A stretch of DNA of 64,000 nt. Source: Escherichia coli. GTDB taxonomy: Bacteria > Pseudomonadota > Gammaproteobacteria > Enterobacterales > Enterobacteriaceae. Below, piece by piece: positions 2,438-64,000 of the stretch. The position numbers and the translations under genes were made by a program. The notes beneath the pieces were generated by a model. The model was not told where the DNA came from and made no database searches. It was given only the letters and a program-made list of their open reading frames with translations. Numbering within the stretch: position 1 is the first letter of the stretch; every line of letters begins with the position of its first letter. The stretch lies in the NCBI RefSeq assembly GCF_013122565.1, contig NZ_CP053258.1. One strand, 5' to 3'.

Positions 2438-2514
2438 TGGTGCGTTCAATTGGACTCGAACCAACGACCCCCACCATGTCAAGGTGGTGCTCTAACCAAC
2501 TGAGCTATGAACGC
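2438..2514 (-). tRNA. valV: tRNA-Val (anticodon GAC)
   Basis: Second copy 4 nt from the first; reverse complement GCGTTCATAGCTCAGTTGGTTAGAGCACCACCTTGACATGG...AATTGAACGCACCA; 77 nt with CCA. Confidence 0.9.
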
Positions 2515-2821
2515 AACGTTGTAGGTGACAACGGGGACGAATATTAGCGGCAGAGTGGGAAGGTGGCAAGAGGCAAAACGTAATTTTCTGCGCTATTTCG
2601 ACCGTTTGCAGAGCTTTTAAGCAAATTGGCTATATTTTGTTGATTTGCAAGGGCGATTTTTATTCAGGATCGCATTTACATCCTATACAACCCAATAATT
2701 CGTGTATCAGAGTTTAAACAGAGTTGTTTGCCACCATCTCAAATCTGTCGTGGATAAATCCTCCGTAGCCTTTACACTTAGGTAGCAATAAAGGCACACA
2801 GATGCAGCAAAGGAATAAATC

Positions 2822-4078
2822 ATGGGATCTGATGCGAAAAACTTGATGAGCGACGGGAATGTGCAAATTGTTAAGACCGGCGAGGTCATTGGCGCGACGC
2901 AACTTACTGAAGGCGAGTTGATTGTTGAAGCTGGCGGAAGAGCCGAAAATACCGTGGTCACGGGGGATGGCTGGTTGAAAGTGGCAACCGGTGGGATCGC
3001 CAAATGCACACAGTACGGTAACAATGGCACGCTATCGGTCAGCGACGGTGCCATTGCCACAGATATTGTTCAGTCCGAGGGAGGCGCAATTAGTCTCTCT
3101 ACGCTCGCTACGGTTAATGGCCGCCATCCCGAAGGTGAATTCAGCGTTGATAAAGGTTATGCCTGCGGTTTGTTGCTGGAAAATGGCGGTAACCTGCGTG
3201 TACTGGAAGGCCATCGCGCGGAAAAAATTATTCTCGATCAAGAGGGCGGCCTGTTGGTCAATGGGACAACCTCAGCGGTCGTGGTAGATGAAGGTGGTGA
3301 ATTGTTGGTGTATCCAGGTGGGGAAGCCAGCAATTGTGAGATTAATCAGGGCGGCGTTTTTATGCTGGCGGGGAAAGCCAATGATACGTTGCTTGCTGGT
3401 GGCACCATGAATAATCTCGGTGGTGAAGACTCTGACACTATTGTTGAGAATGGAGCCATCTATCGTCTGGGGACGGATGGCCTTCAGCTCTACAGTTCCG
3501 GTAAGACGCAAAACCTGTCCGTTAATGTGGGTGGTCGGGCTGAAGTGCATGCCGGTACGCTGGAAAATGCGGTAATACAAGGTGGAACAGTGATCCTGTT
3601 GTCACCCACCAGCGCGGACGAAAATTTTGTCGTAGAGGAAGATCGCGCACCGGTTGAACTGACCGGGAGTGTTGCATTACTGGACGGCGCTTCAATGATT
3701 ATTGGCTATGGCGCAGATCTGCAACAATCAACGATTACTGTACAGCAGGGCGGTGTATTGATTCTCGACGGCAGTACGGTAAAAGGTGACAGTGTCACTT
3801 TCAGTATTGGTAACATCAATCTGAATGGCGGAAAACTGTGGCTGATCACTGGTGCGGCAACGCATGTGCAGCTGAAAGTGAAACGCCTGCGCGGAGAGGG
3901 AGCGATTTTCCTGCAAACCAGTGCGAAAGAAATTTCACCTGACTTCATCAATGTGAAAGGGGAAGTTACCGGTGATATACACGTTGAGATAACAGATGCC
4001 AGTCGGCAAACTCTGTGTAACGCACTGAAACTACAGCCAGACGAAGACGGGATTGGCGCAACGCTCCAGCCTGCGTAA
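2822..4078 (+). CDS. ydhQ: autotransporter-adhesin-related protein YdhQ (Gly-rich beta-helix-like repeats, no translocator barrel)
   Basis: ORF track 418 aa; Gly/Thr/Val-rich repetitive sequence typical of AidA-type passenger domains; length matches E. coli YdhQ. Confidence 0.85.
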   Translation: MGSDAKNLMSDGNVQIVKTGEVIGATQLTEGELIVEAGGRAENTVVTGDGWLKVATGGIAKCTQYGNNGTLSVSDGAIATDIVQSEGGAISLSTLATVNGRHPEGEFSVDKGYACGLLLENGGNLRVLEGHRAEKIILDQEGGLLVNGTTSAVVVDEGGELLVYPGGEASNCEINQGGVFMLAGKANDTLLAGGTMNNLGGEDSDTIVENGAIYRLGTDGLQLYSSGKTQNLSVNVGGRAEVHAGTLENAVIQGGTVILLSPTSADENFVVEEDRAPVELTGSVALLDGASMIIGYGADLQQSTITVQQGGVLILDGSTVKGDSVTFSIGNINLNGGKLWLITGAATHVQLKVKRLRGEGAIFLQTSAKEISPDFINVKGEVTGDIHVEITDASRQTLCNALKLQPDEDGIGATLQPA

Positions 4079-9150: not shown

Positions 9151-10083
9151 ATGTGGTCAGAATATTCTCTCGAAGTTGTTGATGCGGTAGCGCGTAATGG
9201 TAGTTTTAGCGCTGCAGCCCAGGAGTTGCATCGCGTTCCTTCTGCGGTCAGCTATACCGTGCGTCAGCTGGAAGAGTGGCTGGCGGTGCCGCTCTTTGAA
9301 CGACGGCACCGTGATGTGGAGCTGACCGCTGCTGGAGCGTGGTTTCTCAAAGAAGGGCGCTCTGTTGTCAAAAAAATGCAGATCACCCGCCAGCAATGTC
9401 AGCAGATAGCGAACGGCTGGCGCGGTCAGTTAGCTATCGCAGTGGATAATATTGTCAGGCCAGAACGTACACGGCAGATGATCGTTGATTTTTATCGCCA
9501 TTTTGATGATGTCGAACTTCTTGTCTTTCAGGAAGTGTTCAACGGTGTCTGGGATGCGCTTTCCGACGGGCGCGTGGAACTGGCGATTGGCGCAACACGC
9601 GCGATTCCGGTAGGCGGTCGTTATGCCTTCCGGGATATGGGGATGCTAAGCTGGAGTTGCGTTGTTGCCAGTCACCACCCGCTGGCGTTGATGGATGGTC
9701 CGTTCAGCGATGATACGTTGCGCAACTGGCCGTCGTTGGTGCGCGAAGACACCTCGCGAACGCTACCTAAACGTATTACCTGGTTGCTGGATAACCAAAA
9801 AAGAGTTGTCGTGCCTGACTGGGAATCATCGGCAACCTGTATCTCGGCAGGATTATGCATAGGGATGGTGCCAACACATTTCGCCAAACCGTGGCTTAAT
9901 GAAGGGAAGTGGGTAGCATTAGAACTGGAAAACCCCTTTCCGGATTCGGCATGTTGTCTGACATGGCAGCAAAATGATATGTCGCCTGCGTTAACCTGGT
10001 TGCTTGAGTATCTCGGCGATAGTGAGACGCTGAATAAGGAGTGGCTGCGGGAGCCGGAAGAGACTCCCGCAACGGGTGATTAA
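9151..10083 (+). CDS. punR: LysR-family transcriptional regulator PunR (formerly YdhB)
   Basis: ORF track 310 aa; N-terminal LysR HTH region; divergent from punC. Confidence 0.85.
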
Positions 10084-11105
10084 CGACGATAGTCGCGGAA
10101 CGGGCCGTCAGCCACGGAACGGCGTTCAATCAAGCGCGGATGCACTTCAATGGACTGCGGTTCTTCACGTTTGTTGACGATACGATCCAACAGCATGTTG
10201 AACGCTGTTTCACCCAGCGAATCTTTTGGCTGATGGATCGTGGTCAGCGACGGCGTAAAATAGCGTGCGTTGCGCACGTTATCATAACCGATCAGCGAAA
10301 CATCCTGCGGGACGCGCAGCCCCATTTCATCAGCAGCACAAAGTGCGCCCATTGCCATGATATCGCCACCACAGAAGACGGCAGTAGGGCGATGCGGCTG
10401 CGACAGGATTTGCTGCATGGCGCGATAACCGGATTCAGGTTCAAAGTCACCCTGCACAATCCAGCTTTCCGGCACCTTGATCATCGCTTCTTCCATCGCC
10501 TTCATAAAACCGGCAAGGCGGCCTGCGCCGGTGTTGCGCTCCAGCGGGCCGGGGATGACGCCGATTTCGCGGTGACCGCGTTCAATCAGATAACGCCCGG
10601 CCATGTAGCCGCCTTCGAACGCGTTATCAATGACCGCATCGGTGAAGTCAGCTTTTGCTTCACCCCAGTCCATGACCACCATTGGGATATGGCGATACTC
10701 TTCCAGCATCGCCAGCAACGGCTCTGGGTACTCAGAACACATCACCAGCAGACCATCGACGCGTTTTTGCGCCATCATCGACAGATAAGCCCGCTGTTTC
10801 TCAAGATTGTTCCACGCATTGCCCAGAATCAGGGTGTAACCTTTCTGGAAGCAATTTTTTTCAACTGCTTCAATGATCTCGGCAAAATAGGCCGCTTCGC
10901 TGCTGGTCGCCAGCAAACCGATAGACTTGGTGTGGTTAACCTTCAGGCTACGCGCCACCGCGCTAGGGGAGTAGTGTAATTCTTTAATCGCTGCCCACAC
11001 GGCGTTGCGCGTTTCTTCAGCGACGAAACGTGTTTTGTTGATCACGTGTGACACAGTTGTAGTGGAAACGTTTGCTCGTTTCGCTACATCTTTTATTGTT
11101 GCCAT
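10080..11105 (-). CDS. purR: purine repressor PurR (LacI family)
   Basis: ORF track 341 aa; N-terminal [36 protein letters not shown] matches PurR HTH. Confidence 0.95.
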
Positions 11106-11149
11106 TCCATTTCACTCCAGACCCTAACTTCAGCTCCTGCAAAATCGCA

Positions 11150-11165
11150 AGGTAAACGTTTGCCT
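11150..11165 (-). promoter_or_regulatory. PurR box-like operator in the purR leader (autoregulation)
   Basis: Plus strand AGGTAAACGTTTGCCT, i.e. minus strand AGGCAAACGTTTACCT, matching the PurR consensus core GCAAACGTTTnC; about 45-60 nt upstream of purR start codon. Confidence 0.6.
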
Positions 11166-11403
11166 TTACACACCTTACGCACAACAAAAGTGTTGCGGTA
11201 CGCCGGAAAAACGACACGGAGCGTCAGGAAGGGGTCAATGGCCAGTACGCAAATAGTGTAAGCGTGGAATTTTGGCCGATCTTGACGAAAAGGGGAAGTG
11301 GTAAAAACACTTATCATTATAAATGACGGGAGATTTTTTCATCACAGTGTGTAAAAATGCGTAATATCACTTTTTGTGTGGTAATAAAAAAGGAGAAAAC
11401 TTG

Positions 11404-11493
11404 ATGAGCACCGACCTTAAATTTTCACTGGTAACAACGATTATCGTCCTCGGTTTGATCGTAGCCGTGGGTTTGACTGCCGCGCTGCACTGA
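11404..11493 (+). CDS. ynhF: small membrane protein YnhF (29 aa)
   Basis: ATG at 11404 preceded by AGGAG about 8 nt upstream; translation MSTDLKFSLVTTIIVLGLIVAVGLTAALH, single hydrophobic helix; matches known E. coli small protein in purR-ydhP intergenic region. Confidence 0.75.
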   Translation: MSTDLKFSLVTTIIVLGLIVAVGLTAALH

Positions 11494-11658
11494 TTTCCAC
11501 TCGAGGGAGCGCGTTCTCCCTCGCATCTCCTTCCTGTTTGTTAGCAAAATGGCAAAAGTGTTTTCTCTTTTTGTTATTTTCATTTTTTTGTGATTGCTGT
11601 CATGCTTTCGCCACTTTAATGAATATCGCGTAATGACGCGAAGAGGTGGAGATAAGGC

Positions 11659-24812: not shown

Positions 24813-26825
24813 TTAAGAGGCCAGCGTACCTTGCGGCGGTGCTTGCTCAAGTTGCGAAAGCGAGCAGTACAGCCGCCAGACAATTGCCGCCAGCTCACGG
24901 GCGGCAGGTTGATGATGACGGGCAAGGCTGTCGCAAATCCGCTGTAATTCTTCAAGTGTGGCCGCCAGTGATTTTTGCTGAACGCCACGCTCACTCATCA
25001 CTCCCCGCAACAGTGAAATACAGTTATCCCGTACTCGCGATAACGGATCGGAACGCGATTCCCAGTCGCGTAATTGCCAGACAACATGAGAACAGTTCAG
25101 CAGCACTACACCCCAGCGTAATAACCAACGGCGAGCCAGCGCATCCTGGCTGTTACTCAACTGACTGACGTGATGATAAGTGAGCGATTCAAATTCGCTT
25201 TCACTCAGTGTTGGATGGCGGCTTAGTTGATCGACAAAATCCCGGCGCAGCGCGCGAATATGGCGGCGGCTTTTGCGAGCATCCGATCCTGGACGCAGAA
25301 TGGCGAACGCTAACCACGCCAACGCGACGCCAACGATTTTTGCCAGATTATCGTTAAGAAAATCAGCAAAATCATACACCGGGGGATTAGTGACAGCGAT
25401 AAAAGAACCCATAAAAACAATCAGTTGCCCCCACAATGCGGCAAATTTGGGCATCTGCAATTTAAGAAGCTGCATTGTCGCCAGCAGTGGAAAGAGAAAC
25501 AGTAAAAATTGCCACAGATCGCTAATCTGGACCATCAGACCAAATTTGACCACAAAGCTGAATAGCGAAAGTAACACCAGCGTGCGCATCAGCAGTGACA
25601 ACGACTTAAACGGTGCTGCGACGGCGGAGTAGAGTACGCAGCTAATTGCTGCCAGCGTTAATGCATTGGCACCGGCATCCCATTGCGAAGCAACACTCCA
25701 TGCGCCAATCATCATCAACGTACAAAATGTACGCAGCCCGCTCCACATAGCTTCGGCGTTATCGGTATGACGAGCCAGGCCGGATATCCGTGGGAGTCTG
25801 GTATGATCATCTACACCGCTTTGCAGACGATGTAATTCCTGACTACTTTGCAGATAAAGGTGGCAAAAATAACGTAGTCGCTGCCAGAAGGCGACGTGCC
25901 GGTAGTCGCCGACGTTGGTCGGGCGTAGCGGGGCGATAATACGTGCGACGGTGTAAACATCTGTTTGCGAACTGGCGAGCGCCGTCAGCAACTGTTCGAG
26001 AATTTCTCGTGTGGCACCTGGCGGTGAGGGCCAGTTGAGCAACATACGTCGCAGGCTGGAGATGACACTGGTCATACGTAATTGCTGGTGGAGCAGCGCA
26101 TTAAGGCGCGCGTTTTGCTGGCGAAAACGATAGTGGCTCCAGAAAGCCTGGATACGCAGCAAATTCATGGTCAGTATCTGCCCAATCACCCCTTCATGTG
26201 CTGCACGAATGGCATCGGTTGTTTCAGGCTGCCAGAGTAAACTGGCATGTTCCAGTAATCGGGCGTGCATGTTTTTCAATGCGGTTAAAAGGGCTGTAGC
26301 ATCGGAACTGCTAGGCAGGATCATCATCATCATGCCGCCGCACAAAATACCGACAATCACCTCGCAAACGCGCGCCTGAGCGATATCCCACAGCTGGCTG
26401 GCCTCAGTAATATTAACCATCGGAAAGGCGATGATGGCAGCCGTGTAGCCCGCCAGTTGAAATGCATACGCGACGTTATTCGTGAAGTGCGCACAGGCCC
26501 AGGTACAAAAGCCAAGCCACGCCGACATGCTCAATAGAAAAAACCACGGCTCATTGAGCGTATGCCCGGCAAGAAGCAGTGCCGCAATGGCTCCCAGTAA
26601 ACTGCCAGCGATGCGTCCGAGGCTTTTGCTGATGACACCGCCAACGGTGGGAAAGCTAACCACTGCAGCCGAGGTCATCGCCCAATAGGGTTCATCCAGA
26701 TTCAAATAATAGGCAACCGTCAGCGCCAGACACATGGCAATGGTATTGCGTAACGCATAACGCCATTGCGCCAGCGTGGCCCTGAACCAGGGCAAATTGC
26801 GCAAGGACCATGACGATGCGTTCAT
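24813..26825 (-). CDS. ydhK: FUSC-family (fusaric-acid-resistance-like) inner membrane efflux protein YdhK
   Basis: ORF track 670 aa; two hydrophobic blocks separated by a soluble domain, AaeB-like; overlaps ydhJ stop by 1 nt. Confidence 0.88.

Positions 26826-62267: not shown

Positions 62268-64000
<1,733 letters not shown>

Follow-up and report, generated by a model that had tools for sequence, protein, structure and literature searches.

The convergent genes punR and purR of Escherichia coli run into each other without any DNA between them, and the locus therefore raises the question of where the two transcripts end and whether the interlocking of the two stop codons has any significance of its own. 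The DNA analysed here, called the window, is a stretch of 64,000 nucleotides from the chromosome of E. coli strain E423 (RefSeq assembly GCF_013122565.1, contig NZ_CP053258.1). All coordinates are those of the window, except where MG1655 is named; near the purR/punR locus, the MG1655 coordinate equals 1748949 minus the window coordinate.

The stop-codon overlap of punR and purR

The two genes and the tetramer in which they meet are as follows.

9151–10083, + strand: punR (ydhB) coding sequence, 310 amino acids, LysR-type activator of punC; ends GAT TAA, with the TAA at 10081–10083
11105–10080, − strand: purR coding sequence, 341 amino acids, LacI-family purine repressor; ends Tyr-Arg-Arg-stop (CGT CGT TAA), with the stop at 10082–10080
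10080–10083: TTAA tetramer holding both stop codons, the punR TAA at 10081–10083 and the purR TAA at 10082–10080

In the window sequence, the + strand from 10075 to 10085 reads GGT GAT TAA CG. Two nucleotides (10081–10082) are common to the stop codons of both genes. When the stops are counted as part of the coding features the overlap is 4 nt (10080–10083), and the sense codons of punR and purR never overlap each other. No intergenic DNA is found between the genes. The initial annotation had described the stops as interlocked within TTAA with a 2-nt overlap, and this was borne out by the open reading frames of the window and by RefSeq, where the same 4-nt overlap is annotated in strain E423 and in MG1655 (purR 1737844–1738869, punR 1738866–1739798). 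The locus was found in 5,423 of 5,426 complete E. coli genomes, and the gene order in the window is cfa-punC-punR-purR-cydH-ydhP-sodB.

Both partners are genuine protein-coding genes lying tail to tail on opposite strands. PunR contained the Pfam domains HTH_1 and LysR_substrate and PurR the domains LacI and Peripla_BP; the LysR_substrate domain of PunR stops at residue 290, and the final 20 residues fall outside it. PunR and PunC have been characterised experimentally (PMC8376909).

Frequency of the overlap

Four tetranucleotides, CTAA, TTAA, CTAG and TTAG, were described as closing convergent gene pairs (Lillo and Krakauer, 2007; PMC2174442), and the junction of punR and purR, with both stops in TTAA, is one of them. 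The purR gene ends CGT-TAA, so the + strand reads TTAA and one of its three frames meets a stop codon there. In the remaining two + strand frames, the first stops past 10060 were found at 10077–10079 and 10175–10177. The TTAA overlap of punR and purR is not beyond chance expectation. The MG1655 region matching the window contained 12 convergent pairs, and two of these, purR/punR and tus/fumC, ended in such a tetramer. Two further pairs of the region lie close together, ydhK/sodC with 0 nt between the genes and ydhS/ydhT with 11 nt. The tus/fumC tetramer was confirmed in the window as TTAA at 63668–63671, where fumC closes with GGT TAA (63669–63671) and tus, on the opposite strand, with GAT TAA (63670–63668). 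The pair resembles purR/punR in its identical TTAA overlap between convergent E. coli genes and in its place in the published excludon list, whereas the genes themselves are unrelated.

For E. coli, 58 convergent overlaps were counted, and in 19 of them the terminator of one partner lies inside the coding sequence of the other (PMC2174442). The purR/punR pair does not differ in kind from this class, as its stops interlock in TTAA and any terminator must sit within the coding sequence of the partner; what can be seen here in addition is the evolutionary route, since most relatives carry a punR stop codon within a hairpin loop and the lineages with the overlap lack it. The junction tetramers TTAG and CTAG are used by relatives. 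The stop/stop overlap is probably an ordinary by-product of the punR C-terminus lying on the purR 3' end and no special device. It matters little as a discovery: the overlap is annotated, its tetramer class has been published since at least 2007, the pair stands in an excludon list, and the purR 3' end has been tabulated.

The hairpin behind the purR stop codon

The purR-sense RNA folds into a stem-loop shortly after its stop codon.

10073–10044, − strand: purR 3' stem-loop, in purR sense GUUGCGGGAGUC-UCUUCC-GGCUCCCGCAGC; 5' arm 10073–10062, loop 10061–10056, 3' arm 10055–10044

The stem is GC-rich, has 12 base pairs and begins 6 nt past the purR stop. On the + strand the hairpin corresponds to punR codons 299–308, which lie beyond the LysR_substrate domain. 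Its 3' arm is made of the punR codons for L-R-E-P-E, and its 5' arm coincides with tail codons of punR in E. coli and with spacer DNA in most relatives. The fold in purR sense was found to have −23.2 kcal/mol with a z-score of −5.24, and none of 200 shuffles was equally stable; the same bases in punR sense gave −17.1 kcal/mol and a z-score of −1.93, with two G.U pairs turned into A.C mismatches. The 150 nt past the punR stop folded no better than shuffles (z −1.43).

No Rfam family was found at the punR/purR junction, and a scan with a terminator consensus did not call a canonical terminator there. The scan did call terminator-like sites inside the partner genes, at 10203–10219 (+) and 9390–9378 (−); each is a weak stem of 5 bp, placed in coding sequence that is well conserved, and neither was accepted as the terminator of punR or purR. 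It had been claimed that the overlap leaves no room for a terminator between the genes. This holds for intergenic DNA, which is zero, but not for the junction as a whole: a conserved, covarying, GC-rich hairpin (10044–10073) occupies the last punR codons, and the purR 3' end lies directly behind it. The conserved functional element at the junction is the purR 3' RNA stem-loop. A literature search on ydhB together with antisense or convergent returned nothing about this junction, and no prior description was found of the covarying hairpin in punR codons or of the stop-in-loop arrangement of relatives; both belong to known kinds.

Conservation and covariation of the hairpin

One genome per species was scanned, which gave 80 Enterobacteriaceae loci with punR, 78 of them scorable. 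In all 78 scorable loci purR was convergent with and adjacent to punR. The 78 species-level loci contained 77 distinct junctions, and the hairpin was present at the same place in every one, with minimum free energies from −15.7 to −23.4 kcal/mol. In 30 of the 77 the punR-sense fold was at least as stable. When arms were exchanged, so that the 5' half came from one species and the 3' half from another, the chimeric hairpins reached −14.9 kcal/mol compared with −20.0 kcal/mol for the native ones.

Anchoring the sequences on the coding 3' arm showed changes on both sides of the stem at seven or more positions. At one anchored position the pairs were A-U in 43 sequences, C-G in 18 and U-A in 2, and at another G-C in 31, U-A in 12, A-U in 12 and C-G in 5. 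A gap-free alignment was made from the 24 sequences with 5-nt loops, in which 89.2% of the cells pair compared with 80.8% in shuffles (0 of 500 as high) and 31–55% when the partner arm was slid. A covariance model built from this alignment gave matches on the purR-sense strand in 70 loci, all at the same position, and a single match on the opposite strand. Its match in the window was 10043–10074 on the − strand, with 24.3 bits. In the covariance-model alignment, which includes six weak spurious matches, 91.8% of the cells pair, compared with 34–54% when the partner was slid. Double-sided changes were found at 7 of 10 pairs in that alignment, against 3.2 expected (0 of 500), and the covariation score was 0.236 against 0.104; both covariation alignments were registered on the predicted hairpin and their sequences are related, so that these shuffle controls overstate the significance. 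Pairs are thus kept across species by compensatory changes, in an alignment fitted to the structure. Plain MAFFT alignment followed by RNAalifold gave only two trivial pairs, because variable spacer and loop lengths shift the 5' arms out of register, and the register was still off after constant anchor sequences had been added.

The substitutions also differ between the strands. We counted 38 G.U cells that pair in purR sense only, against 6 A.C cells that pair in punR sense only, and this asymmetry suggests that selection acts on the RNA in purR sense.

Position of the punR stop codon in related species

How far the purR stop lies from the punR stop was found to vary among the 78 loci.

−4 nt: 26 loci
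+1 nt: 3 loci
+3 nt: 1 locus
+5 nt: 1 locus
+14 to +22 nt: 46 loci
+45 nt: 1 locus

The exact 4-nt overlap is kept in only 26 of the 78 related species, and most of the others contain a spacer of 14–22 nt. The members of the −4 group are Escherichia, most Citrobacter, Salmonella arizonae, Trabulsiella, Leclercia, Silvania, Pluralibacter gergoviae, Intestinirhabdus and Pseudocitrobacter. Where the distance is +14 to +22 nt, punR has 303 amino acids, and its stop (TAA, TAG or TGA) lies within the hairpin loop, for example in cGGGAGCCGG-aaTAA-CCGGCTCCtg. The equivalent codon of E. coli is a sense codon.

10060–10062, + strand: punR codon 304, GAG in E. coli; in 46 of the 78 related species it is the punR stop, located in the hairpin loop

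The loop stop of the relatives corresponds to a position 21 nt before the E. coli punR stop. Most PunR orthologues in the protein database have 303 amino acids. The last seven punR codons of E. coli are poorly conserved and vary even within the species (PATGD versus PAMND). Within the Enterobacteriaceae the hairpin after the purR stop is constant, and it is the position of the punR stop that floats across it. We interpret the loop as the place where the stem leaves the sequence free, and the punR stop of relatives sits there.

Outside the Enterobacteriaceae the order cfa-punC-punR-purR-cydH is kept across the Enterobacterales, but the gene ends differ. Serratia plymuthica contained a −4 junction (CTAG) with a 12-bp hairpin inside the punR tail, and Erwinia sp. 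9145 a −4 junction (TTAG). In Pantoea, a 72-nt spacer (+72) holds two hairpins, and in one record of Yersinia pseudotuberculosis punR is annotated 138 nt into purR (−138). By minimum free energy folding, the four outgroup junctions contained stems near the purR stop that are built from different sequence, and the covariance model gave 0 matches to them.

Loss of a stop codon followed by 3' extension is the standard model for the origin of convergent overlaps (PMC2716372). Where the loop stop is absent, the punR frame runs on for seven codons to its first in-frame stop, and that stop is the TAA (or TAG) made on the opposite strand by the purR ending CGY-TAA. The overlap would then arise wherever punR lacks the loop stop and the length of the spacer sets its frame onto the TAA or TAG that mirrors the purR stop. 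The comparison of the junction sequences would place the loop-stop state first and the loss of the stop second. This polarity (stop loss versus stop gain) is uncertain, given that a 4-nt overlap is found in the outgroups Serratia and Erwinia too.

The 3' ends of purR and punR

The end of the purR transcript was taken from published Term-seq data.

10042/10041, − strand: steady-state 3' end of the purR mRNA, MG1655 1738907/1738908 (+) (Term-seq; Adams et al., 2021, Supplementary file 1)

The end at 1738907 (+) had a read count of 1561, and that at 1738908 was recorded in a second growth condition; Adams et al. (2021) assigned it to purR as a primary end and to ydhB as an antisense one. The sequence column of that file carries 10 nt downstream of the 3' end, and its reading was checked against the coordinates of the purR stop and start. 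The end lies 2–3 nt past the stem and 38–39 nt past the purR stop, inside punR codon 298, and overlaps 42 nt of the punR coding sequence. The purR RNA ends with GGCUCCCGCAGCCA (window 10042). The sequence after the stem is CCACUCCUUAUUC, without a U tract, and many relatives have a tail with still fewer U residues, such as CCACUCCCGGUUC.

Term-seq across the junction had been proposed as the check on transcripts entering the partner gene. In the published data the purR end falls inside the punR coding region and not before it. The accompanying claim that each transcript extends into the other gene is therefore upheld for purR, by 38–39 nt. No punR 3' end is listed in Adams et al. (2021), the − strand of MG1655 from 1737422 to 1742568 being empty among the matches listed. 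Since the stop codons are interlocked, punR transcripts must nevertheless reach into purR. For purR and the adjoining part of punR (MG1655 1738000–1738799 and 1739000–1739399), Adams et al. give no additional 3' ends, and their Supplementary file 2 lists no Rho-termination region within MG1655 1738000–1739399.

Origin of the purR 3' end

An end 2–3 nt past a stem, with no U tract, implies that purR transcription probably continues further into punR antisense. The sequence downstream of the mapped end is rich in C.

9942–10041, − strand: C-rich, G-poor stretch, candidate Rho-loading region for purR read-through RNA; C/G = 1.72

This ratio carries modest weight, as a surplus of C is general on the antisense strand of E. 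coli genes. A class of Rho-dependent transcripts has precise ends right after stable stem-loops without a U-rich tail; in that class the stem-loops shield the RNA from PNPase and RNase II, and rut sites follow closely downstream (Dar and Sorek, 2018; PMC6061677). The purR transcript is like this class in that its precise steady-state end comes right after a stable stem-loop with no U tract and is followed directly by C-rich, G-poor, rut-like sequence, the latter counting only modestly. It is unlike the class in that the Rho dependence of purR is putative and that the structure is made in part from codons of a convergent gene.

We consider it likely that the stop-codon overlap is a by-product of punR lacking its loop stop and that the purR end is set by trimming to the conserved hairpin after termination further downstream, probably by Rho. 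In this sequence of events, purR transcription would pass its stop, form the hairpin and run on into punR antisense. Termination would follow further downstream, most likely by Rho acting on untranslated C-rich RNA, with polymerase collision as the alternative. The RNA would then be trimmed back by 3'-5' exonucleases to the hairpin, which would both set and protect the purR 3' end. For punR transcripts inside purR, Rho termination of the untranslated antisense RNA would be the default expectation. Against this stands the Rho survey of Adams et al., in which the Rho dependence of the purR end is unsupported; low expression may mask such a region there, or the end may have another origin.

A different origin is offered by the overlapping bidirectional terminators of Ju et al. 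(2019) and Wang et al. (2022), which are prevalent in E. coli and Rho-independent, as at ynaJ-uspE. Here the hairpin would pause RNA polymerase coming from both sides, and head-on and trailing collisions would release both enzymes without a U tract or Rho, a single element thus ending the transcripts of purR and punR alike. In favour of this, a conserved GC-rich hairpin without a U tract, which folds on both strands, sits where a convergent pair meets, and the survey of Adams et al. listing no Rho region at purR/punR would fit as well. The differences lie in direction: a 3' end is mapped on the purR side only, and the wobble pairs (38 versus 6) and z-scores (−5.2 versus −1.9) favour the purR-sense strand. 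Moreover, strongly expressed pairs suit the collision model best, and in the RNA-seq of adenosine versus control by Rodionova et al. purR had a baseMean of 521 and punC of 38, punR being unlisted. We regard a bidirectional terminator as unlikely at this junction, although the hairpin may play some role in both directions, given its weaker punR-sense fold.

The purR gene might also end at a canonical intrinsic (Rho-independent) terminator placed within the punR coding sequence. The first half of such a terminator is present, namely a stable, GC-rich stem-loop of 12 bp in the nascent RNA 6 nt past the stop with a precise 3' end beside it, and inside-partner terminators are documented by the 19 E. 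coli overlaps mentioned above. The second half, a U-rich tract that directly follows the stem and contains the 3' end, is missing: CCACUCCUUAUUC follows the stem, the consensus scan made no call, the mapped end is 2–3 nt past the stem and not several nucleotides into a U run, and the tails of many relatives contain still less U. This makes an intrinsic terminator quite improbable, and trimming to the hairpin after downstream termination is the reading that we retain.

Possible cross-talk between purR and punR

In MG1655, 165 convergent excludons were recovered in at least 50% of the RNA-seq samples, and purR-punR is one of them (ExcludonFinder, NAR 2025; PMC12288877, Table 1). Together with the Term-seq end, this list shows from published data that the opposite-strand transcription units overlap in vivo, and in this respect purR-punR is like the convergent excludons of Toledo-Arana and Lasa and of ExcludonFinder. 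The outcome that defines an excludon is mutually exclusive expression. In the data of Rodionova et al., purR decreased with adenosine (log2FC −1.37, 2.6-fold down), punC increased (+1.58), and punR was absent from the differentially expressed genes, so that, unlike in an excludon of that definition, the adenosine RNA-seq gives no sign of it for purR/punR. No dsRNA or RNase III data on the pair were found in the literature.

It could be argued that the interlocked ends are kept for mutual antagonism, through transcriptional interference or RNase III acting on the 3' duplex, as a reciprocal control of purine synthesis and purine nucleoside uptake. The listing as an excludon, the functional link between the two regulators, the conserved order cfa-punC-punR-purR-cydH and the 42 nt of punR coding sequence covered by the purR end would all agree with this. 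The listing, however, is met trivially by any gap-free pair, and the geometry is not conserved (−4, +1 to +22, +45, +72, −138); what persists is the hairpin. In addition, adenosine lowers purR and raises punC, yet punR is not among the differentially expressed genes. Selection for an adaptive excludon is therefore doubtful to a high degree, and antisense cross-talk between purR and punR is a possible side effect of a putative kind.

In a more specific form, the hairpin itself would serve as a two-way coupling device. Active punR transcription, or the tail of the punR mRNA, would base-pair with the purR hairpin or break it up, and the 3' duplex, 42 nt or longer, would be cleaved by RNase III. 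With punR on, the purR mRNA would be stripped of its protective end, and vice versa. If true, the coupling would link the repression of purine synthesis and the activation of purine nucleoside uptake post-transcriptionally, and a further result would be altered purR expression in strains with a punR deletion or C-terminal tag. We hold this to be very improbable.

Finally, the idea that the overlap is an annotation artefact and that the real punR ends earlier, which the 303-residue orthologues and the poorly conserved last seven codons outside the Pfam domain might suggest, is refuted at the sequence level and has next to no probability left, because the punR frame has no in-frame stop in E. 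coli from codon 1 to 10081–10083, the same open reading frame stands in RefSeq, and a ribosome on punR has to reach TTAA.

Expected consequences for punR mutants

The junction is a worked example of how convergent genes without a spacer still obtain a defined 3' end, by means of a stem-loop in the C-terminal codons of the partner that lie outside its domains. Manipulations of the punR end would hence touch purR as well. A Keio-type deletion, in the 2006 design of Baba et al., reportedly leaves only the last 21 nt of a gene. Such a deletion of punR would take away the loop of the purR hairpin together with its 3' arm. For PunR ChIP-exo, a tag at the C-terminus has been used; a tag placed at the punR stop would be expected to strike the purR stop codon. 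Where a phenotype is ascribed to a punR mutation, a change in purR should be looked for as well.

Apparent opposite-strand RNA at the 5' end of purR

The Rfam search found a full-length match to RF02081 (STnc550, described as an 'enterobacterial sRNA') with a score of 396.5 bits, located as follows.

11106-11496 (+), RF02081 match; first base adjoining the purR start codon

The match spanned the 29-aa cydH/ynhF ORF and, judging by this coverage, the family looks like the cydH mRNA. It faced the 5' UTR and promoter of purR in antisense, and thus transcripts from the other strand appear to overlap purR at its 5' end as well as at its 3' end. In the MG1655 Term-seq data, the ynhF 3' end at MG1655 1737422 was very strong, with a count of 655,382 versus 1,561 for purR (Adams et al., 2021). 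The purR 5' UTR also contained a PurR-box-like palindrome, AGGCAAACGTTTACCT (11150-11165).

Autoregulation of purR involves two operators, one in the leader and the other in the coding region. Two early purR-sense 3' ends were reported by Term-seq (Adams et al., 2021):

11116 (-), MG1655 1737833, 11 nt before the purR ATG
10997 (-), MG1655 1737952, 108 nt into the purR ORF

Therefore, in view of the positions of the two operators, these early 3' ends might be related to purR autoregulation.

Published punR strains

The strain used for PunR ChIP-exo carried a chromosomal 8xmyc tag at the C-terminus of punR (ydhB), and the nearest genes in the ChIP-exo peak table included purR and ydhB. A genetic-interaction study reported growth defects of a ydhB deletion in minimal medium. 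Because the stop codons of punR and purR are interlocked and the purR hairpin, a stem-loop of the (-) strand, is embedded in the last punR codons, effects of the punR-8xmyc and ydhB-deletion constructs on purR, through 10044-10083, are conceivable.

punR in Yersinia pseudotuberculosis

In one outgroup record, Yersinia pseudotuberculosis GCA_900460665.1, punR (2501-3631 of locus L085) was annotated at 376 aa, passing through two intergenic hairpins and then 138 nt into purR antisense. The other Yersinia-like PunR orthologues were about 305-311 aa. The 376-aa form may reflect loss of the stop codon in this strain alone, or else a sequencing or annotation error.

Other convergent junctions

Three further tight convergent junctions were observed in the region.

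63668-63671, tus (-)/fumC (+, 62268-63671), TTAA stop/stop overlap of the same kind as in punR/purR
approx. 24815-24816, ydhK/sodC, 0 nt separating the CDSs
MG1655 1748735-1748747, ydhS/ydhT, 11 nt separating the CDSs

The tus/fumC, ydhK/sodC, and ydhS/ydhT pairs are all included in the published list of MG1655 excludons (convergent pairs from ExcludonFinder; PMC12288877).
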